DNA of 64,000 nucleotides, taken from Clostridia bacterium. Lineage in GTDB: Bacteria; Bacteroidota; Bacteroidia; Bacteroidales; 4484-276. The notes beneath the pieces are model-generated. The model did not search any database and was not told the DNA's origin. It saw only the letters and a list, made by a program, of their open reading frames with translations. The stretch is taken from contig SABY01000001.1 in the NCBI GenBank assembly GCA_009928785.1, positions 23,633-87,632 on the forward strand, read 5' to 3'. The first letter of the stretch is position 1, and every line of letters starts with the position of its first letter. The position numbers and the translations under genes were made by a program. Of the stretch, positions 3,629 to 63,613 are shown one piece after another.

Positions 3629-3707
3629 AGTATAAAACCAAAACCCTCCGCGAATTCACACGAATTTGGCGAATTTTCATGATAAGGGAACTAGCGATAA
3701 TTCGTTT

Positions 3708-4090
3708 AATTGGCGGAAATTCGCGGACGGCTTGTTTATCCACGAATTCACCCGAATCAGTCGAATTCACACGAAAATTAAAAGACTGATTCCTTTTGAA
3801 GTTTCTATGTCAGCCTGATAGAAAGTCGCAGCAGGGGTCTGTTTTTTTATTTTTAAAATAATTAGCGGAAATTCGCGGACGGCTTGTTTATCCACGAATT
3901 CACGCGAATCAGGCGAATTCACACGAAAATTAAAAGACTGATTCCTTTTGACGTTTCTATGTCAGCCTGATAGAAAGTCGCGGCAGGGGTCTGTTTTTTT
4001 TATTTTTAAAATAATTAGCGAAAATTAGCTGAATTGGCGGAAATTCGCGGACGGCTTGTTTATCGAATTCACACGAAAATTAAAAGACAA
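3708..4090. repeat. Tandem repeat, 152-bp unit, about 2.4 copies (unit starts 3708, 3860, 4032)
   Basis: AAT(T/A)GCGGAAATTCGCGGACGG recurs at offsets of 152 and 172. The 172 offset reflects a 20-bp internal duplication. Each full unit has two GAATTCAC words, a hairpin TTTCTAT-N9-ATAGAAA (3802-3824 in copy 1) and a T-run. Confidence 0.85.
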
Positions 4091-4135: not shown

Positions 4136-5278
4136 TTATTCACCATTAAAGATGTCGAGATAATCCTGAAAGGCAAATAGGCGGTTTCTGCTTTGACCGG
4201 TCATTTCTTTGAGATAATTTTTTTGTTGCATCATGGCAACCAGGTTGCCAGCAGCCTTGTAGCTAAGATTACATGCTTTACTTGCCTGCTCCACAGTAGT
4301 AAACGGATTACGAAAAAGTGTTTGCAATAATGTAATGGCTGAGTGGCTACGTCGTCCAAAAGAGGCATTGATTTCCTTTTCGACCATTTCTTTTAGTTTG
4401 ATAATCCCGATAAGTTTTACCACAGCCATTGAAGCAGTTTGCTCAATGCCGGTCAGAAAAAACTTTATCCATTGCAACATATCATTTTGTGTGCGCACGA
4501 TGCTCAATTTATCATAATACAGCAGCCTGTTTTTATCGAAAAATAAGGAGGGGTAAAGTATCGGCTTATCGAGAATTCCCTGGCTCATTAAGAATAAGGT
4601 GATGAGCAGGCGTCCAATTCGTCCATTCCCATCCAAAAATGGATGTATCGTTTCGAACTGATAGTGAATAATTGCGATACGCACCAGTGCAGGGACATGT
4701 ATCTCCTCGTTGTTGAGGAAGTTTTCCAGATCACCCATCAACTCATCAATTAAATGATGTCGGGGTGGAATAAAAACAGCATCATTCAGAGACATCCCAC
4801 CTATCCAGTTCTGACTTTTTCGATACTCACCGGGCTGTTTATGTTGACCTCGCACACTCTCCAGGAGTATTTGGTGTGTATCCCTGATCAACCGTGATGA
4901 AATGGGAAGCCGGGCTAACCCTTCAATTGCTTGATTAAGCGCCCGAATGTAATTATTCACCTCCTGCCAGTCGTGGCGTCTTTCGGGGATAATTTCCTCG
5001 ATGGGTAGCAAGGCTTCATCAATGCTGGTTTGCGTTCCTTCTATCCGGCTCGAAACCACTGCCTCTTTGGCTACATGCAGCCGGATAAACAAATCGATAT
5101 CGGGTACGAGCCGCGCATACGAATTAAGCTCTCCCAATCTAAGTGCAGCTTTTTCGATTAGTTGATTAACTATCGGTTCATTCCAGCTCCATTCATCATC
5201 TATTTTTGCTGGAACAAAATATTGATAGCCCGTGTACTTTTCATAGTGTCCTGCGACGAAATTTTCTATTTCGATCAT
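4136..5278 (-). CDS. Fic family protein (AMPylase-type, class II with N-terminal inhibitory helix, C-terminal wHTH-like region)
   Basis: Canonical Fic motif HPFLDGNGRIGRLL. Inhibitory motif (S/T)xxxE(G/N) is present as SSRIEG in a Fic_N-like N-terminus. ATG at 5278; the track start 5314 is a TTG. Confidence 0.9.
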   Translation of the reverse strand: MIEIENFVAGHYEKYTGYQYFVPAKIDDEWSWNEPIVNQLIEKAALRLGELNSYARLVPDIDLFIRLHVAKEAVVSSRIEGTQTSIDEALLPIEEIIPERRHDWQEVNNYIRALNQAIEGLARLPISSRLIRDTHQILLESVRGQHKQPGEYRKSQNWIGGMSLNDAVFIPPRHHLIDELMGDLENFLNNEEIHVPALVRIAIIHYQFETIHPFLDGNGRIGRLLITLFLMSQGILDKPILYPSLFFDKNRLLYYDKLSIVRTQNDMLQWIKFFLTGIEQTASMAVVKLIGIIKLKEMVEKEINASFGRRSHSAITLLQTLFRNPFTTVEQASKACNLSYKAAGNLVAMMQQKNYLKEMTGQSRNRLFAFQDYLDIFNGE

Positions 5279-5408
5279 GAGATAGTTTTTGGATTTTGCA
5301 TAATCGAACCTCAAATCATTTTATGGTGCGAAAGTAAAATAAAAAATCCGTTATTTTACTTTTAGCCTTTAAAGTAAAATAAGAAAAAGCGTATTGTACT
5401 TTCGTAAA

Positions 5409-12371: not shown

Positions 12372-12520
12372 AGACGCACGTCCCCCGCATGGGCGGGGCA
12401 GGCTGTGCGTCTCTACAATTGAAATCCCAAATCCCAAATCCCAAATCCCAAATCCCAAATCCCAAATCCCAAATCCAATTTCTTACTTCTAACTTCTATT
12501 CTCTTCCCTCTTAATTTCGT
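12372..12520. repeat. Composite intergenic element: nested GC hairpin, CAATTGAAATCC junction, (AAATCCC)x7 and an AT-rich tail
   Basis: Outer stem AGACGCAC/GTGCGTCT (12372-12379 / 12405-12412). Inner stem CCCCGC-ATGG-GCGGGG. Seven perfect heptads at 12422-12470 plus one imperfect. Tail TTCTTACTTCTAACTTCTATTCTCTTCCCTC. Confidence 0.9.
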
Positions 12521-16596: not shown

Positions 16597-17778
16597 TTGA
16601 GAGCCTACCCACGCATTACTGATCTCATAAATGATCTCACCGGAATCGACCTAAACCTGCCCGTTCAGACGTATGGCTTTTTTGTTGCACTGGCCTTCGT
16701 AGCAGGGGGGTTTATACTTTGGCTTGAGCTGGATCGGAAAGAAAAATCCGGCCAAATAAAGTTGAAAAACAGCCAGATGGTGACCAGGAAGAAGCCTGTG
16801 GCCGTCGAGTATCTCATTTCCGGAATCTTGTATTTTATCATCGGATTCAAGCTTACGGGAATCATTTTTAATTATGACGAGTTTACTGCCAATCCCCAGG
16901 GTTTTATATTTTCCGCCAAGGGATTTTATATTGGCGGTTTGGTGGTAATGGTGCCGGTATTGTGGATGATTTACCGGAAAGGGAAAAAAGCGGAAAGTGC
17001 AAACCCGGATGATGAAAAAGAATTGCGGGCGCGCGATCTTACACCGGCCATCGTTTTGGTAGCTGCTGTAGCCGGTATTGCCGGAGCCAAAATATTTGAT
17101 GTCGTCGAGCATCTCGATCAACTCTTCCGCGACCCGCTCGGCACACTATTTTCCTTTAGTGGATTAACTTTTTATGGAGGATTGCTCGTAGCGGCTTTTG
17201 CTGTAGGCATTTATGGCGAGCGCCACAATATCCGGTGGCCGGTAATGGCCGATGCGGTGGCTCCTGCTTTGATGCTTGCTTACGGCATAGGGCGCATTGG
17301 CTGCCAACTTTCCGGCGACGGCTGCTGGGGAATCGTGAATACGCTCACCAAACCAGCGTGGCTTACCTGGTTGCCCGATTTTATGTGGAGTTCCACCTTT
17401 CCGCACAACGTCATCAAAGAAGGCCTGCCACTGATGGATTGTAATGGAACCTATTGTTATGAATTGGGGCAGCCGGTTTTTCCTACTTCCCTTTACGAAA
17501 CGTTGATCGCTATTACTTTCTTTGGGGTGCTGTGGGCGCTCCGAAAACGTTTCACTGTTGCCGGAATGTTATTTTCGCTCTATCTGGTGCTAAATGGCAT
17601 AGCACGTTTTATTATCGAATTTGTGCGTGTTAATATTCGCTATCAGGTAGCTGGCTTCGAGGTGTCGCAGGCACAGATTATTGCTGTAATGCTGATTGTG
17701 GTGGGTGGCTTCGGTTTGTTTTATTTCAGATATTTGCATCCGATGGAAAGAAATCGCAAAAAATCAAATCCCAAATGA
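16597..17778 (+). CDS. lgt: Prolipoprotein diacylglyceryl transferase family protein
   Basis: Polytopic membrane protein. Lgt-like blocks [17 protein letters not shown] and [15 protein letters not shown] start with no nearby ATG. The last codons are built from the heptad-like AAATCNN repeat. Confidence 0.7.
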
Positions 17779-18000
17779 CAAAAGACAAATCACAAATAAA
17801 TCCCAAATTCCAAATTCTCAAAACCGTCGCTGGTTGAGCTTGTCGAAATCTGGTTATTAGGATTTATTTGGAACTTGTTTATTTGGAACTTGGAATTTCC
17901 CCAAAACTTGTTTATTTGGAACTTGGAATTTCCCCAAAACTTGTTTATTTGGAACTTGGAAATTCTCCAGGGCTTGTTATTTTGGAATCTGGGATTTAGC
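17764..18000. repeat. Composite repeat: period-7 tract (NNNNCAA), a central ~35 bp, then a 33-bp unit x~3.8; the arms form a long imperfect inverted repeat
   Basis: Unit CTTGTTTATTTGGAACTTGGAATTTCCCCAAAA starts at 17874, 17907, 17940 and 17973. Left AAATCCCAAATTCCAAA is nearly the reverse complement of right TTTTGGAATCTGGGATTT. Confidence 0.85.
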
Positions 18001-18923: not shown

Positions 18924-19280
18924 ATGGAAATGACAGCCAAGCGCGTAATTCAAACCAATGTTCCGGCAGACGATTCCCTGCGACAAATCAAAGACAGCCC
19001 CACGCGTAGTTTCCTCAAAGCGGTGAGCTGGCGGTTCATCGCTTCGGCTACCACATTTTTGGTAACCTTTATTATTTTTAAAAATGCTACCGACAAAACC
19101 GTCGATGAAGTGCTCGAAGCAGCCTGGTACGTAACCATGGTGGAGTTTAGTGCTAAGATATTTATCTACTATTTGCATGAGCGCATGTGGACTAACATAC
19201 GGTGGGGAAAATATTGGCAGCGCAACTACTGGATACGCCGACGTTGGAAACGCCTCTATCGCAGAATGCACCTGAATTAG
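18924..19280 (+). CDS. DUF2061-like small membrane protein
   Basis: Pattern SFLKAVSWRFIASATTFLVTF ... KIFIYYLHERMW is typical of DUF2061. Confidence 0.6.
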   Translation: MEMTAKRVIQTNVPADDSLRQIKDSPTRSFLKAVSWRFIASATTFLVTFIIFKNATDKTVDEVLEAAWYVTMVEFSAKIFIYYLHERMWTNIRWGKYWQRNYWIRRRWKRLYRRMHLN

Positions 19281-22785: not shown

Positions 22786-24090
22786 ATGAGTTCTTTTGAA
22801 ATTTGCGGAGGCAAAAGGCTCAGTGGACAGATTACACCCCAGGGTGCCAAAAACGAGGCGCTTCAGGTGATTTGTGCTGTTTTACTCACGAGCCAACCTG
22901 TTACCATTAGCAACATTCCGGAGATACGTGATGTGATAAAGCTAATCGACCTGCTGAAGTTGCTTGGCGTGGTGGTGGAAAAAACCGACGAGTCAACCTG
23001 GCGCTTTACCGCCTCAGATATTCATCTCGATATTTTGCTTACGGATAAGTTTCGTAAAAAAAGTGCGGAGTTGCGCGGCAGTATCATGATTATCGGTCCG
23101 CTGCTTGCACGCTTCGGTAAGGCATTTATTCCGCAGCCTGGTGGCGACAAAATAGGCCGTCGTCGGCTCGACACGCACTTTATTGGGTTACAAAAGCTGG
23201 GTGCCAAATTCGATTATAACTTTCAGAAGAACTACTACAGCGTGGTAGCGGAGCGTCTGGAAGGTACCTACATGCTCCTCGACGAAGCCTCCGTTACCGG
23301 CACCGCCAACGTACTCATGGCTGCCACCCTGGCGCATGGCACCACCACCATTTTCAACGCCGCCTGCGAGCCTTATGTGGTGCAGCTCTGTAAAATGCTC
23401 AACAGCATGGGTGCCCGAATCGAAGGTATTGGCAGCAATCTGCTGATTGTACACGGTGTAGAAGTTTTATCCGGCTGCAGCCATAAGCTCTTGCCCGACA
23501 TGATCGAGGTGGGTAGTTTTATCGGGCTGGCAGCACTCACCCAATCCAACATAAAAATTACCGGCGTCAACCCGGCCGATCTGGGCATCATCCCCGACGT
23601 TTTTGGAAGGCTCGGCATCCGTATGCAACTCAATGCCGACAGCATCGAAATTCCCGAACAGGAGAGTTACGAGATCGAAACTTTTATGGATGGCTCCATC
23701 ATGACCATCTCTGATGCTCCGTGGCCCGGCTTTACTCCCGACCTGATTAGTATTGCGCTGGTGGTGGCCATACAAGCCAAAGGCAGCGTGTTGATCCATC
23801 AGAAAATGTTTGAAAGCCGTCTGTTTTTCGTTGACAAACTCATCGACATGGGCGCTCGTATTATTTTGTGCGACCCGCACCGCGCCACCGTTATTGGCCT
23901 CGCCCGGCAATACAAGCTGCGCGCTATCCGTATGAGTTCGCCCGACATACGTGCTGGTGTAGCCTTGCTGCTCAGTGCGCTATCGGCTGAAGGCAAAAGC
24001 ATCATCGACAACATTGAGCAGATCGACCGCGGCTACCAAAACATCGATGGACGCCTGCGTGCAATTGGCGCGGAAATTGAAAGAATTTAG
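22786..24090 (+). CDS. murA: UDP-N-acetylglucosamine 1-carboxyvinyltransferase
   Basis: Full-length MurA pattern (GAKNEALQVICA...). The active-site loop PGGDKIGRRRLDTH has Asp (codon GAC at 23146-23148) where E. coli has Cys115. Confidence 0.95.
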   Translation: MSSFEICGGKRLSGQITPQGAKNEALQVICAVLLTSQPVTISNIPEIRDVIKLIDLLKLLGVVVEKTDESTWRFTASDIHLDILLTDKFRKKSAELRGSIMIIGPLLARFGKAFIPQPGGDKIGRRRLDTHFIGLQKLGAKFDYNFQKNYYSVVAERLEGTYMLLDEASVTGTANVLMAATLAHGTTTIFNAACEPYVVQLCKMLNSMGARIEGIGSNLLIVHGVEVLSGCSHKLLPDMIEVGSFIGLAALTQSNIKITGVNPADLGIIPDVFGRLGIRMQLNADSIEIPEQESYEIETFMDGSIMTISDAPWPGFTPDLISIALVVAIQAKGSVLIHQKMFESRLFFVDKLIDMGARIILCDPHRATVIGLARQYKLRAIRMSSPDIRAGVALLLSALSAEGKSIIDNIEQIDRGYQNIDGRLRAIGAEIERI

Positions 24091-24231
24091 AAGTTAGATG
24101 TCAGAAGTTAGATGTTAGAAATTAGATTTAGGATTTTTAATTAGGAAGTAGAGACGCACAGCCTGCCCCGCCCATGCGGGGGACGTGCGTAAATAATTAC
24201 GAATGAATATTGAATTTTGAATTTTGAATTG
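24090..24231. repeat. Composite element: degenerate 14-mers (GAAGTTAGATGTNA), the same GC hairpin as at 12372 (inverted), and (TGAATTT)x~4
   Basis: 24148-24190 is a perfect reverse-complement match to 12374-12416 (43 nt). 14-mers at 24090-24131; heptads at 24204-24231. Confidence 0.9.
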
Positions 24232-27122: not shown

Positions 27123-27275
27123 AGACCAAACCCTTCGGAGGACGTGTGTCTGGAAATGCAATTGAAATCCGAATACCGAATACCGAATACCGAATACTGA
27201 ATACCGAATACCGAATACCGAATAACGAATACCGAATAACGGATAACGAATAACGAATAACGGATAACGAATTTT
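27123..27275. repeat. Composite element: short hairpin region, CAATTGAAATCC junction and 15 heptads (GAATACC grading to GAATAAC/GGATAAC)
   Basis: AGACCAAACCCTTCGGAGGACGTGTGTCT at 27123-27151. The junction at 27159-27170 is identical to 12416-12427. Heptads counted from 27171 to 27275. Confidence 0.9.
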
Positions 27276-39643: not shown

Positions 39644-41920
39644 ATGCTTTTCGATCTCGATCTAATCCAAAACGTTTACAATAAATTTCCTGCAAGAATC
39701 CAAAAGGCGCGTCAGCTTTTAAAGCGTCCGCTTACGCTCACCGAAAAAATCCTCTATGCCCATTTGTGGGATGAGGTGGGAAAAGAATATAACCGTGGCG
39801 CCGACTATGTGGATTTTGCCCCCGACCGCGTGGCCATGCAAGATGCTACCGCCCAGATGGCGCTGCTTCAATTTATGCAGGCCGGGCGCGACAAAGTGGC
39901 GGTGCCAAGCACGGTGCATTGCGATCACCTGATACAGGCGCGCGTGGGAGCCAAAGAAGATTTGAAGGTTGCTAAAGATAACAACCGGGAGGTTTTTGAT
40001 TTTCTTTCGTCGATATCCAATAAATATGGTATTGGTTTCTGGAAGCCGGGTGCCGGCATCATCCATCAGGTGGTGCTCGAAAACTATGCTTTTCCCGGCG
40101 GGATGATGATAGGAACCGATTCGCACACCGTGAATGCCGGCGGGCTTGGCATGATAGCCATTGGTGTAGGCGGCGCCGATGCTGTGGATGTAATGGCCGG
40201 CATGCCCTGGGAGCTGAAGATGCCGCGCATCATCGGTGTAAAATTAACGGGTAAACTCAGCGGATGGACATCCTCCAAAGACGTCATTCTGAAAGTTGCT
40301 GGTATCCTTACGGTAAAAGGCGGAACAGGTGCTATTGTTGAATATTTTGGCCCTGGCGCCGAGCATCTGAGCTGCACAGGCAAGGGCACGATATGTAATA
40401 TGGGCGCCGAGATTGGAGCAACCACTTCTTTATTCGGCTACGACCGGCGTATGTCGGATTACCTGCGTGCTACCGGACGTGCTCTGGTGGCCGACGCTGC
40501 CGATAAAATTGCCGGACATCTAATCGGTGATGAAGAAGTTTATAACGATCCCGGAGAATATTTCGATCAGGTTATCGAAATTGATCTTTCCCAACTGGAG
40601 CCGCACATCAACGGGCCTTTTACCCCGGATTTGGCCACGCCGGTATCGGAATTTGCGCAGGCAGCCCGCGACAACAACTGGCCACTGACGCTGGAGGTAG
40701 GCTTAATTGGTTCCTGTACCAATTCATCTTACGAAGACATTACCCGTGCTGCTTCAGTGGCGCAGCAGGCGCTCGACAACGATCTGGAAGTGAAATCGGA
40801 ATATACCGTTACGCCCGGTTCCGAGCAGGTGCGGTTTACAGTAGAACGCGACGGCTACCTCGACATCTTCGAAAAAATTGGCGGCGTGGTGCTGGCCAAT
40901 GCATGTGGCCCCTGCATCGGACAATGGGCACGCCACAATGCCGACAAGAAAGAGAAAAACTCTATCATGACGTCGTTCAATCGCAACTTTGCCAAACGCA
41001 ACGACGGCAACCCCAACACGCACGGTTTTGTGGCTTCGCCCGAAATTGTAACGGCTTTTGCCATTGCCGGCACCCTGGAGTTTAATCCGCTCACCGACAG
41101 CCTTATTAATAAAAAAGGAGAAAAAATAAAACTGAAAGAACCACAGGGAATCGAACTGCCTATTAAAGGTTTTGCTGTGGAAGACAATGGCTACCAGGAA
41201 CCTGCTCGCGATGGCAGCAACATCAGCGTTGAGGTGGCTCCCGACTCCGACCGTTTGCAGTTGCTTGCGCCTTTTGCACCCTGGGAAGGTCACGACATTA
41301 AAGGTCTAAGATTATTAATAAAAGCCAAAGGCAAATGTACCACCGACCACATTTCGATGGCCGGCCCCTGGCTGCGCTACCGTGGTCACCTGGATAATAT
41401 TTCCAACAACCTGCTTATTGGCGCCGAAAATGCCTTTACCGGAAAAACCAATCTTATCAAAAACCAGCTAAACGGTGCATATGATGCAGTGCCGGCGGTG
41501 GCAAGAGCTTACAAAGCGCAAGGCATTGGAACCATTGTGGTGGGCGACGAAAATTATGGCGAAGGCTCCTCACGCGAACATGCCGCTATGGAGCCGCGTC
41601 ATCTGGGCGTTAGAGCTGTGGTGGTGCGTAGTTTTGCACGCATACACGAAACCAACCTAAAAAAGCAAGGGATGCTCGCGCTTACCTTTGCCGACAAAAC
41701 CGATTACGGTAAAATTATGGAAGACGATACTTTCGACATCACAGGTCTCGAAACCTTTGAGCAAGGCCGTCCGCTGCAACTCATCGTTCACCACTTCGAC
41801 GGCACCACCAACAAAATGGAGATGCTGCACACCTATAGTCCGGTACAAATAGAATGGTTTAAAGCCGGCTCGGCGCTCAACCTTATCAAAAAGCAGAATG
41901 TGTTGACGGGGAGGAAGTAG
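39644..41920 (+). CDS. acnA: Aconitate hydratase (about 750-aa type)
   Basis: Aconitase family blocks including the Fe-S ligand contexts GSCTNSS and [10 protein letters not shown], plus the swivel domain. The stop TAG (41918-41920) lies inside the first GGAAGTA heptads. Confidence 0.9.
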
Positions 41921-42223
41921 GAAGTAGGAAGTAGGAAGTAGGAAGTAGGTAGCAGGAAGTAGGTAGTGGTTAGAACAAAGAAATTAGAATTTACCGTTGA
42001 GATGCCCGATCGTGTTCGTTTAATATTGTTGATGAATGAAACCTCTGCAGGCTTCCTGTCAATAATTCCCGGATTCATCAGGGATAGATGGAAGAAGAGC
42101 CAACTGCGAACTGCGAACTGTGTACTGTGGACTGTGGACTGTGAGCTGCCAACTGCGAACTGAGAACTGTGAGCTGCCAACTGAGAACTGCGAACTGTGG
42201 ACTGCGAGCTGCCAACTGCAACT
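41913..42223. repeat. Composite element: (GGAAGTA)x~8, a ~130-bp core, then 17+ heptads of the form GNNNACT
   Basis: Left array 41913-41968. Right array 42099-42223 (GCCAACT, GCGAACT, GTGGACT, GTGAGCT...), with a higher-order ~28-bp pattern. Confidence 0.9.
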
Positions 42224-42434
42224 GCCTTTTGTTGATTTTTTAACCCAAAACCTGGGTAAAGGTATCCACAAGCTATTGGGTTGATAAATTTTTGTATTTT
42301 AAACTAAATATCAGAAAACCAATGATATAGTTTTGAAATTCCTTCGATTTCCTTTTTTATCCCTTTTGGCACGATACTCTCAAGTTCCCTTTTATTGTTA
42401 TAAATAAATTGTTAAACCTAAAAAGTAATACGCC

Positions 42435-42623
42435 ATGAACAAACTACAATTAAAAGGAAACTGGAACACTGTGAAAGGAAACCTGAAACAGAAGTATGCT
42501 AATCTTACAGACGATGATCTAACGTATGCCGAAGGCAAAGAAGACGAACTGCTCGGACGCCTGCAAAAGAAAACCGGCAAAACCAAGGAGGAGCTGACTG
42601 ACGAAATCAATAAAATTAAATAG
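42435..42623 (+). CDS. CsbD family general stress protein
   Basis: 62 aa; [23 protein letters not shown]...[20 protein letters not shown] is the CsbD pattern. Confidence 0.85.
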
Positions 42624-42625
42624 TC

Positions 42626-42769
42626 ATGCGCAGCCTACTTTATATTATCGCCGTAATCCTGGTTATTGGCTGGCTGCTTGGATTCTTTGTTTACACAGCC
42701 GGCGGACTGATCCACATCCTGTTAGTATTAGCCGTAATCGCTATCCTGATTTCGCTGATCCGCGGATGA
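42626..42769 (+). CDS. Lmo0937-family small membrane protein (47 aa; not in the ORF track)
   Basis: Hand translation gives MRSLLYIIAVILVIGWLLGFFVYTAGGLIHILLVLAVIAILISLIRG. ATG at 42626 and TGA at 42767-42769, starting 2 nt after the csbD stop. Confidence 0.6.
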   Translation: MRSLLYIIAVILVIGWLLGFFVYTAGGLIHILLVLAVIAILISLIRG

Positions 42770-44946: not shown

Positions 44947-45083
44947 AAACAAACAAACACCGAACACCAAACAACAAACACCAAGCAACAAACTTGAGCG
45001 TAGCTGCCTGCCCCGACCCATCGGGGAAATCCCGAGAGCTTTGCGATTCGGGAAACAAACAACGAACAACAAACAACGAACAG
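44947..45083. repeat. Composite element: (CAAACAC/CAAACAA)x~7, two GC hairpins, then (AAACAAC/AACGAAC)x~4
   Basis: Hairpins CCCCGA-CCCA-TCGGGG (45011-45026) and CCCGA-N12-TCGGG (45031-45052). Heptad tracts at 44947-44993 and 45053-45083. Confidence 0.85.
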
Positions 45084-47303: not shown

Positions 47304-47689
47304 TAACCTTTCTATCTCCTCCTTCATCGGACCGTAGAAAGTTGCTACCCCCCCCACAGACTTTCGAGCGTCCGAAGGACCTCGAAACGTCAACAAACGA
47401 AACTAACCTTTCTATCTCCTCCTTCATCGGACCGTAGAAAGTTGCTACCCCCCCCACAGACTTTCGAGCGTCCGAAGAACCTCGAAACGTCAACGAACGA
47501 ACCTAACCTTTTCTATCTCCTCCTTCATCGGACGATAGAAAGTTGCTACCCCCCCACAGACTTTCGAGCGTCCGAAGGGACCTCGAAACGTCAAACAAAC
47601 AACAAACAACAAACAACAAACAACAAACAACGAACAACAAACAACGAACAACAAACAACAAACAACGAACAACGAACAACAAACAACGA
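47304..47689. repeat. Three tandem copies of an exactly 100-bp unit (starts 47304, 47404, 47504) running into ~14 heptads (AACAAAC/AACGAAC)
   Basis: Copies 1 and 2 differ at 3 positions. Each unit has hairpin A (CTTTCTA...TAGAAAG, 47308-47341), a C7-8 run and hairpin B (TTTCGAG-C-GTCC-GAA-GGAC-CTCGAAA, 47362-47387). The heptad tract spans about 47593-47689. Confidence 0.9.
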
Positions 47690-63444: not shown

Positions 63445-63613
63445 TATATCAGTTATTATTTATTAATCCGACTCATCTGGCTTTTCGGATTCGCCCCGTT
63501 TTTTTTATTGGTATCTGGATTCCAAAATTGATCTGAAATGGTATTTATGTTTTTATCATCGTTTACTTTTGGTGTATTAATTTTGAAAAGCTAAAACGAC
63601 TTATTGCAATACG

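Follow-up and report, generated by a model that had tools for sequence, protein, structure and literature searches.

Two unrelated heptanucleotide repeat arrays, probably expanded in place, in a hypervariable acn-csbD spacer of a Lentimicrobiaceae-like Bacteroidota

The window is a stretch of 64,000 nucleotides of contig SABY01000001.1, and the region studied here, locus 6, is the spacer between an aconitase gene (acn) and a csbD-like gene on the same strand (Table 1). As the earlier note had stated, two different heptad arrays follow the aconitase gene; both TRF and inspection of the units bear them out. Array 1 consists of five perfect GGAAGTA units followed by GGTAGCA, GGAAGTA and GGTAGTG (TRF: 41912-41967, 8.0 copies, 89% matches). 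Each of its unit junctions forms a TAG, which places stops in all three frames within 21 nt. Array 2 consists of 17 degenerate heptads (42099-42217) and the incomplete units that end it (TRF: 42102-42225, 17.9 copies, 77% matches). Head-to-tail 7-nt units thus occur far beyond chance in both arrays, with a lag-7 identity of 0.77 versus 0.12-0.21 at lags 1-6 and 8.

Table 1. Features of the acn-csbD spacer and the genes on either side, in window positions
Feature	Positions	Strand	Basis or remark
Aconitase (acn) CDS, 758 aa	39644..41920	+	ORF list and translation
Out-of-frame TGA corresponding to the ancestral stop	41904..41906	+	Read directly from sequences
Array 1, (GGAAGTA)x8	41913..41968	+	TRF and unit listing
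Decayed heptads prolonging array 1 (GTTAGAA CAAAGAA ATTAGAA...)	41969..41995	+	Lag-7 profile, alignments
Putative remnant of terminator-type hairpin element, GTTGAGATGCCC...GATCGTGTTCGTTTAAT	41996..42028	+	Alignment to L162; 3' boundary by eye
8-bp inverted repeat TGATGAAT / ATTCATCA	42030..42080	.	In aperiodic, unique part of spacer (about 41995-42085)
Array 2, 17 degenerate heptads G-[C/T/A]-[G/C]-[A/G/T]-[A/G]-C-T, 7 unit types, then GCAACT, then GCC	42099..42225	+	TRF, unit analysis
Nested palindrome TTGTTGAT-N6-ACCCAAAACCTGGGT-N6-ATCCACAA	42229..42271	.	Conserved in L001, L066, L162, L081
csbD-like gene, 62 aa, PF05532	42435..42623	+	Downstream neighbour in window, L001, L066, L081, L162

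The acn stop codon, TAG at 41918-41920, straddles the first unit junction of array 1, confirming that the first array provides the stop codon together with the last residues of the protein. The earlier note had also named what would speak against this, namely array-less relatives with an identical aconitase C-terminus, and that is not what the C-termini of 75 relatives give: 4-9 residues follow WFKAGSALN in 72 of the 75, versus 12 in the window. Compared with the relatives, the last five codons (LTGRK) and the stop are an extension. In the relatives L001 and L163 the gene ends in AAT GTT TGA, and in L162 in AAT GTG TGA, with a protein five residues shorter; the window reads AAT GTG TTG ACG at the same place. 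The ancestral TGA has been put out of frame by a 1-nt insertion, and translation therefore continues for five more codons until it meets the array's first TAG. We suggest that the array already abutted acn when the insertion shifted the ancestral TGA, so that the first TAG to hand would have ended the reading frame. On this sequence comparison, the overlap between stop codon and array is better read as a by-product than as a feature. The other ORFs running across the arrays look spurious, as had been proposed: none reaches the Pfam threshold. A small protein in the core (ORF 41966-42163) was likewise rejected, since it has no Pfam match and the homologous stretch of L162 contains an in-frame stop codon.

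Of the ACT that the earlier note had called invariant in array 2, the C and T are indeed invariant, but the A is found in only 14 of the 17 units; the invariant positions are G1, C6 and T7, which read CTG from one unit into the next. The array departs from its consensus 19 times, only ever at four of the seven positions, and the CTG never varies. Counted against neutral expansion, this could reflect constraint (rough estimate, p about 0.1), a reading tempered by the presence of only seven unit types and hence of few independent mutations. The proposed higher-order periodicity of about 28 bp does not hold. Identity at lag 28 is 0.758, versus 0.755 when the unit order is permuted (20,000 permutations, p=0.52), identities at lags 7-42 all lie between 0.71 and 0.77, and the period-28 row of TRF has 78% matches versus 77% for period 7. 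We therefore rejected a 28-bp repeat, its long-period identity being no higher than that of shuffled unit order.

Between the arrays, the earlier note had seen a core of ~130 bp containing an inverted repeat; a discrete unit organized around that repeat is not supported. Lag-7 identity fades gradually after array 1 to about 41995 and climbs again from about 42083, which leaves some 90 nt of aperiodic core in place of 130, the rest being decayed heptads; this core is unique, unstructured and not conserved. The inverted repeat itself is present (TGATGAAT at 42030-42037, ATTCATCA at 42073-42080, 8 bp with a 35-nt loop), but it does not organize the core: the minimum free energy fold leaves it unused, the core folds no better than its shuffles (z +0.74), and chance alone would give an estimated 0.1-0.5 such 8-bp pairs in 131 nt. 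The whole region also folds no better than shuffles (z +1.53), and Rfam returned nothing at gathering score (best match at the E-value threshold, E=1); on these grounds a structured RNA or riboswitch was rejected. Searches with blastn-short against the window and 161 loci (1.03 Mb) yielded only chance 13-18-mers of the core, which argues against a dispersed repeat or mobile element of the REP/BIME, MITE or SDR type. The core is probably left-over spacer rather than a functional unit.

Alignment to the relative L162 indicates where the 5' part of this core comes from. Window positions 41926-42007 align to the region after the L162 acn stop (76% over 84 nt, E about 1e-11; a multiple alignment agrees), and the decayed heptads contain a linker, AAATTAGAATTT, common to L162 and to window locus 24110-24147. 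At the homologous spot L162 has purine-rich proto-heptads followed by an intact hairpin and T8 terminator (GACGCCC...GGGCGTC plus T8). Its inner stem-loop (CAGCCTGCCCCG-N6-CGGGG) is deleted in the window, where only the outer flanks of the hairpin are kept. As judged from the alignments, then, decayed heptads and what is left of the L162-type hairpin make up the 5' part of the core. The region is not a plain terminator, the other finding that the earlier note had said would count against its account: a terminator scan of 41700-42700 gave 0 sites, and an intrinsic terminator (GC-rich stem-loop plus T-run) was rejected for the window.

On the csbD side, array 2 stops 3 nt short of the conserved nested palindrome, which bounds the variable spacer and, judging from its conservation, is probably an operator or upstream site for csbD. 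The array end at 42225 lies about 210 nt from the csbD ATG at 42435. A sigma-54 reading of a conserved TGGCACGA box upstream of csbD was rejected, its spacing to any TTGC being unlike GG-N10-GC.

Comparison with relatives and strains showed how variable this spacer is. L001, L066 and L162, whose aconitases are 92-94% identical to that of the window, keep the acn-csbD order and the conserved blocks upstream of csbD; the arrays are absent, and 90-630 nt of unrelated or merely proto-repetitive spacer stand in their place. L066 has heptad-like units of GAATTG type, to which the final units of array 2 align (69% over 95 nt). Unit number and order also differ among near-identical strains. One such strain, L081 (about 98% identical), has GCCAACT three times where array 2 ends, versus once plus GCAACT in the window; the array at 44954 has at least nine units in L081 versus about six in the window; and at 27169, L165 equals the window, and L164 and L166 have another unit order, their flanks being identical over the ~85 nt compared. 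This comparison of strains covers these three places, of which the array 2 end is the one in locus 6, and part of the polymorphism evidence rests on contigs that end inside arrays (L081, L164, L166). A protein search for same-species orthologues of the aconitase reached 93% identity at best, no record was found of the window's exact aconitase or DUF2061 protein, and a metagenome scan with the acn C-terminus gave none closer than 74% among the matches listed.

Locus 6 is not isolated. Period 7 dominates the window, accounting for 12 of its 17 TRF arrays of at least three copies, plus one 14-mer. Per 100 kb, the window has 17.2 period-7 arrays, close relatives have 13.1, other Lentimicrobiaceae 5.1 and other Bacteroidota (911 kb) 2.7, which makes the 64 kb examined of this genome about six times as dense in them as the last group. 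Period 7 is likewise commonest in the other Bacteroidota (25 of 63 arrays). Every array in the window is intergenic, and of the roughly 30 spacers that measure 100 bp or more, about 8 hold period-7 arrays; a non-coding site and an excess of period 7 were thus both found in the 64 kb examined. The units vary by locus and taxon, and the period alone is common to them. One unit family, RGAAGTW, begins at or beside the stop codon of three plus-strand genes (19287, 24082, 41912), ahead of the same hairpin family, which is more regular than pure local slippage predicts.

This regularity bears on a second reading. In it, RGAAGTW heptads, a linker of AATTAGA type and a GTAGAGACGC...CTGCCCCG-N6-CGGGG hairpin make up a dispersed composite element, one copy of which would form the left half of locus 6. 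Such an element would spread or be homogenized between intergenic sites like REP/BIME or like the cyanobacterial small dispersed repeats in heptamer arrays, and the arrays would be part of it or its preferred target, not independent products of slippage. The hairpin family does have similar copies at unrelated sites, unlike the locus 6 core: two 43-nt copies, 100% identical and in opposite orientation, lie 11.7 kb apart (12374-12416 and 24148-24190), with diverged members at 45008 and downstream of the L162 acn. RGAAGTW-type heptads precede the hairpin in three places (window 24082-24147, the minus strand of 12480-12498, and the L162 proto-heptads), locus 6 aligns to the heptad-hairpin module as far as the hairpin 5' arm, and a 12-nt junction, CAATTGAAATCC, stands ahead of two different arrays, at 12415 and 27158 (family D8). 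Against it, the core of locus 6 occurs just once in the 1.03 Mb compared, and the hairpin there is deleted; the two flanking arrays differ from each other, as they would not after a simple insertion of the core into a single uniform array; no hairpin accompanies array 2; what looks like a shared linker may be mere decayed AGAAGTT-type heptads; and any mobility would have to be judged from only four hairpin copies. We regard this reading as unlikely. A bolder form of it, less probable again, holds that in this Lentimicrobiaceae lineage the heptad arrays and the hairpin jointly form a 3'-end module, dispersed and spreading by itself or by gene conversion. The module would set transcript 3' ends, the arrays would be a substrate or by-product of transposase-independent insertion or repair, and locus 6 would be a decayed copy that lost its hairpin. 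If true, it would give the Bacteroidota an equivalent of the small dispersed repeats inside cyanobacterial heptamer arrays.

Function of the arrays themselves was weighed against the same data. They might act in cis, within the 3'UTR of acn or the transcript upstream of csbD, either as multivalent unstructured platforms for a regulator that binds single-stranded RNA or DNA, or as a stand-in for the lost terminator. The CTG found in 17 of 17 array 2 units would fit, as would the AACTG core in 10 of 17, which also occurs in TAACTGA repeats (PMC4679880); shuffled sequences fold better than the region does, the window lacks the terminator that L162 has, and Mucilaginibacter (L019, L022) also places heptads between stop codon and terminator. 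Yet unit sequences are unconserved across loci, strains and relatives, near-identical strains vary in copy number and unit order, and L001, with 94% aconitase identity, has no heptad array of at least three copies in 8.3 kb. Moreover, array 2 lies upstream of the conserved palindrome, away from any ribosome-binding region, and none of its units is TAACTGA. We consider such a role improbable. That the arrays form a contingency (phase-variation) locus, with unit number switching the expression or frame of acn or csbD, is more improbable by far, even though copy number differs between strains and array 1 touches the acn reading frame. The first in-frame TAG falls at the first unit junction, so that gain or loss of units would leave the protein unchanged; array 2 lies outside the conserved palindrome-to-ATG block, and its length would leave the spacing of those elements unaltered; and neither gene encodes a surface determinant, acn and csbD having housekeeping and stress roles. 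Phase variation was rejected on this anatomy, by which repeat number would alter neither the reading frame nor the spacing of conserved elements.

Taken together, we think it likely that locus 6 is a hypervariable non-coding acn-csbD spacer and that short motifs already present there grew in place into two unrelated, LSSR/STRR-like arrays of heptanucleotide simple-sequence repeats. The heptads would have multiplied during replication, by slipped-strand mispairing or by unequal exchange. Array 1 would have grown out of the purine-rich stretch between the acn stop and the hairpin terminator, whose inner stem would have been deleted afterwards in the window lineage, and array 2 from GAAYTG-type units beside the conserved palindrome upstream of csbD. 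Locus 6 would then be one case of a genome-wide habit of forming period-7 arrays, and we infer that the arrays have no sequence-specific function, i.e. that they are neutral. For annotation, such arrays give spurious ORFs, break short-read assemblies (as in the three contigs named above) and lengthen the aconitase by five residues.

Cyanobacteria of the genera Calothrix and Nostoc reportedly carry several families of intergenic heptamer STRRs in which small dispersed repeats are embedded. The window is similar in its scattered intergenic 7-nt tandem arrays and in the short hairpin elements beside or between them (12374, 24148, 45008), but the phylum and the units are others, the core of locus 6 is no dispersed repeat, and its two arrays differ. 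The STRR units CCCCAGT, TTGGTCA and CAACAGT form no tandem pairs in the window; with a Bacteroidota host, membership in the STRRs was rejected. The Rho-independent terminator downstream of acn offers a further comparison: the site after the stop codon is right, and L162 has the GC-rich hairpin and T8, but the inner hairpin is deleted in the window. Heptamer repeats of Xanthomonas (GGGAATC) and Nostoc (GGGGA(T/C)T) form G-quadruplexes (Rehm 2015, PMC4692102), and such intergenic arrays resemble ours in the strong variation of length and sequence among related genomes at one site. Arrays 1 and 2 have no runs of three or more G, and therefore no G4 potential; this class was rejected because its units require such a run, which GGAAGTA and GNNNNCT lack. 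In the window only (AAATCCC)8 at 12422, GGGATTT on the other strand, resembles the class.

A further comparison is with the TAACTGA repeats, which in the Beggiatoaceae mostly sit no more than a few nucleotides ahead of a start codon (MacGregor 2015, PMC4679880). The same paper describes Bacteroidetes intergenic regions with several different long heptamer arrays side by side, missing from close relatives with the same gene neighbourhood, as we found here, and the AACTG core is shared with the array 2 units already mentioned. TAACTGA itself matches 0 of the 17 units and is absent in tandem from the window, and some 210 nt separate array 2 from the next start codon; neither unit identity nor site fits, and membership was rejected. 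Locus 6 on its own is not a new kind of element: its heptad repeats belong to a known bacterial simple repeat class. In most prokaryotic genomes, long SSRs (LSSRs) are most often built of heptanucleotide units, for which an origin by polymerase slippage has been put forward (Mrazek, Guo and Shah 2007, as cited in PMC4679880 and PMC4692102). As far as those accounts describe them, LSSRs share with our arrays the head-to-tail 7-nt units, the intergenic site, the favoured period 7, locus-specific units and variation between close relatives. The window differs in its density of about 17 arrays per 100 kb, in paired arrays within one spacer, in arrays that abut or overlap stop codons, and in its Lentimicrobiaceae-like Bacteroidota host; a literature search by terms other than the family name found no description of that group as heptad-rich. 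The window is thus an unusually dense and clean case of a long-noted, unexplained bacterial liking for 7-nt units. Its orthologous spacers, at 92-98% identity, show arrays apparently born from proto-repeats, expanding, and overrunning terminator and stop codon, and the lineage could therefore serve as a natural system for heptad slippage rates and for the effects of arrays on 3' end formation.

Both heptad arrays that the earlier note described between the aconitase gene (acn) and csbD, at locus 6, are present, as demonstrated by TRF and by direct reading of the units. TRF returned 8.0 copies for array 1 (41912-41967, 89% matches) and 17.9 copies for array 2 (42102-42225, 77% matches), and the ORFs crossing the arrays had no Pfam match above threshold. 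Array 2 is built from seven unit types. When its units are read with ACT as the 3' half, G1, C6 and T7 are fixed, giving a CTG that spans every junction; of the supposedly invariant ACT, C and T are indeed constant, and A occurs in only 14 of 17 units. Because there are only seven unit types, the constant CTG is weak evidence for constraint. There is no support for the proposed 28-bp higher-order period: lag-28 identity was 0.758, against a mean of 0.755 in 20,000 random re-orderings of the array's own 17 units (p=0.52), and identity was 0.71-0.77 at all multiples of 7.

Coordinates of the arrays, the conserved blocks and the hairpin family (window positions unless a related locus is named)
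Feature	Position	Description
Aconitase ORF	39644-41920	758 aa
Array 1	from 41913	8 heptads: GGAAGTA x5, GGTAGCA, GGAAGTA, GGTAGTG
Array 2	from 42099	17 heptads, then the 6-mer GCAACT, then GCC
Nested palindrome TTGTTGAT..ACCCAAAACCTGGGT..ATCCACAA	42229-42271	upstream of csbD; starts 3 nt past array 2
Conserved box TGGCACGA (also given as CTGGCACGAnnCTCTCA)	42367-42374	upstream of csbD
43-nt hairpin GTAGAGACGCACAGCCTGCCCCGCCCATGCGGGGGACGTGCGT	12374-12416 (-) and 24148-24190 (+)	100% identical, opposite orientation, 11.7 kb apart
Diverged hairpin copy	45008 (within 45000-45030)	
Hairpin family member in L162	1364-1410	downstream of acn, then T8; looks like an intrinsic terminator

The stretch between the arrays, taken for a 130-bp core, is not supported as a functional unit. 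A sliding lag-7 profile showed that the periodicity of array 1 fades by degrees to ~41995 and is back from ~42083; therefore, the aperiodic part is only ~90 nt, and neither the rest of the window nor 1.03 Mb of related loci contains another copy of it. The inverted repeat noticed there exists (TGATGAAT at 42030-42037, ATTCATCA at 42073-42080), but it is short and unused by the minimum-energy fold. Folding was no better than shuffles for the 133-nt core (z +0.74) and worse than shuffles for the whole 401-nt region (z +1.53), an Rfam search of the region gave no credible match (best E=1), and a scan of locus 6 for a terminator-like site found none. The sole Rfam match of the window at gathering score is the DUF805 RNA motif RF03081 at 63462-63530 (-) (68.5 bits, E 1.8e-10). 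Unlike locus 6, the spacer at 17757-17987 could form a long hairpin: its left array (AAATCCC/AAATTCC) and its right 33-bp x3.5 repeat of GGAACTT/GGAATTT heptads are mutually inverted, with 37-nt arms that are 73% complementary.

Array 1 does supply the aconitase stop, as first read: TAG 41918-41920 straddles the first unit junction. The WFKAGSALN motif is followed by 12 residues in the window and by 4-9 (mode 7) in 72 of the 75 relatives with a readable aconitase C-terminus. The gene ends in AAT GTT TGA in the related loci L001 and L163, in AAT GTG TGA in L162 and in AAT GTG TTG ACG GGG AGG AAG TAG in the window; therefore, one extra base, possibly an assembly indel, shifts the ancestral TGA (41904-41906) out of frame. 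This base would extend the ORF by five codons (LTGRK) up to the first TAG of array 1. A TAG-containing heptad stops every frame within three units, because 7 and 3 have no common factor, and an ORF that lost its own stop beside such an array would terminate almost immediately. The stop-codon overlap is real and incidental.

The nearest aconitases belong to Bacteroidales/Lentimicrobiaceae metagenome-assembled genomes (94% identity in L001 and L066, 92% in L162, 93% in L163). As in the window, csbD lies downstream of acn in L001, L066, L162 and the ~98% identical contig L081, and two blocks upstream of csbD, the palindrome and the box, are conserved across all five. They probably represent an operator or upstream site together with a promoter; the spacing is not that of a canonical sigma-54 -24/-12 promoter. 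From the acn stop to the palindrome the genomes are completely different, with ~305 nt in the window, ~90 nt carrying a small hairpin in L001, ~190 nt with GCGCATG-like and GAATTG-like heptads in L066 and ~430 nt in L162.

Window 41926-42007, running from the end of array 1 through the first 40 nt of the "core", aligns to the post-stop region of L162 (76% over 84 nt, E about 1e-11), which is rich in purines and no more than loosely heptadic (GGAAAGG AAAGTAA GTAGTAG GTAGAAG ...). In L162 these proto-heptads give way to AAATTAGAATTT, after which GTAGAGACGCCCAGCCTGCCCCGACTATTCGGGGATCGGGCGTC plus T8 forms a textbook hairpin-plus-U-tract terminator. The window retains GTTGAGATGCCC and a 3' flank resembling GATCGTGTTCGTTT and is missing the inner stem-loop; its acn terminator has been lost. 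GAATTG-type heptad-like units beside the palindrome in L066 align with the final units of array 2 (69% over 95 nt). From these alignments, both arrays appear to have expanded in place from short motifs older than the species.

Near-identical strains differ within arrays and not in the flanks. The 3' end of array 2 reads GCCAACT x3 in L081 versus one GCCAACT and GCAACT in the window, and the array at 44954 has at least 9 units in L081 versus ~6 in the window. At 27169, L165 equals the window, which independently confirms the array, and unit order differs in L164 and L166, with flanks identical over the ~85 nt compared. These comparisons are partial, as several contigs stop inside arrays, indicating that the arrays break short-read assemblies. 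In the divergent spacer between a Cys/Met-PLP gene and asnC (44954-45082), AACAAAC-type arrays lie either side of a hairpin core; L162 has (AACAATT)x9 (4992-5056) and L081 a longer CGAACAC/CAAACAA array (2765-2836); the heptads of this one spacer are related yet different in each strain.

Period 7 prevails well beyond locus 6. In the window, 12 of 17 tandem arrays have this period (at least 3 copies), plus one 14-mer of two heptads; all period-7 arrays are intergenic, occupying ~8 of some 30 spacers that are 100 bp or longer, and their units vary by locus (AAATCCC, CCGAATA, AACAAAC, AGAAGTT, TGAATTT and others). Per 100 kb, the window has 17.2 such arrays, the closest relatives 13.1, other Lentimicrobiaceae 5.1 and other Bacteroidota (911 kb) 2.7; in this last group, too, period 7 is the commonest (25/63 arrays). 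Among distant Bacteroidota, two Mucilaginibacter loci (L019 and L022, both 5265-5335) have TTTTAGA heptads separating the acn stop from a classic terminator; different or inverted array pairs surround 80-100-nt cores in a Chitinophagaceae MAG (L047, 7090-7255) and a Bacteroidetes MAG (L065, 1417-1595). The perfect (AAATCCC)x8 at 12422-12476, whose opposite strand (GGGATTT)n has G-quadruplex potential, resembles the GGGGATT repeats of Nostoc studied in PMC4692102. Two larger tandem repeats, 3707-4026 (152 bp x2.1) and 47304-47600 (100 bp x3, each unit ending in heptad remnants, fused straight to (AACAAAC)x13), both carry a hairpin-like motif, TTTCTAT...ATAGAAAGTYGC, pointing to a second family of small structured repeats.

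Two patterns exceed simple local slippage, the constant CTG of array 2 and the placement of RGAAGTW-type arrays. These arrays begin at the stop codon, or beside it, in three + strand genes (19287, 24082, 41912) and precede the same hairpin family: the TAG of an EPSP-synthase-family (murA-like) gene (24088-24090) lies at the first junction of an AGAAGTT/AGATGTC array, and the stop of a DUF2061 gene (19278-19280) lies 7 nt ahead of (AGAAGTTAGAGGGG)x6. The lgt stop TGA (17776-17778) lies inside a CAAATCA/AAATCCC array, and both 43-nt hairpin copies adjoin heptad arrays. The pairing of RGAAGTW-type arrays with this hairpin family may reflect a dispersed heptad-plus-hairpin module, which would resemble the small dispersed repeats that Nostoc carries within its heptamer arrays. 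An identical 12-nt junction, CAATTGAAATCC, stands at 12415-12426 ahead of (CAAATCC)n and at 27158-27169 ahead of a different array, (GAATACC)n; at each site a hairpin, or a sequence like one, ending GTGCGTCT / GTGTGTCT lies upstream of it, which hints that the two loci may be paralogous. Neither the stop-codon/hairpin regularity nor the CTG alters the classification of locus 6.

The STRR heptamers of cyanobacteria were known still earlier than the heptamer repeats compared here. According to Mrazek et al. (2007), as cited in PMC4679880 and PMC4692102, most prokaryotic genomes have more heptanucleotide repeats than any other class of long simple sequence repeat, and slippage tied to the stretch of DNA that the polymerase holds was proposed as the cause. 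Bacteroidetes intergenic regions contain long TAACTGA arrays alongside other heptamer arrays, which are missing from close relatives whose gene neighbourhood is the same (PMC4679880); Xanthomonas GGGAATC repeats occupy the same site at different length (PMC4692102). Locus 6 lies outside the TAACTGA and STRR sequence families, because the window has no tandem copies of their units. It fits the heptanucleotide class of long simple sequence repeats, and is thus a further example of a known repeat kind in a lineage where it is unusually dense.
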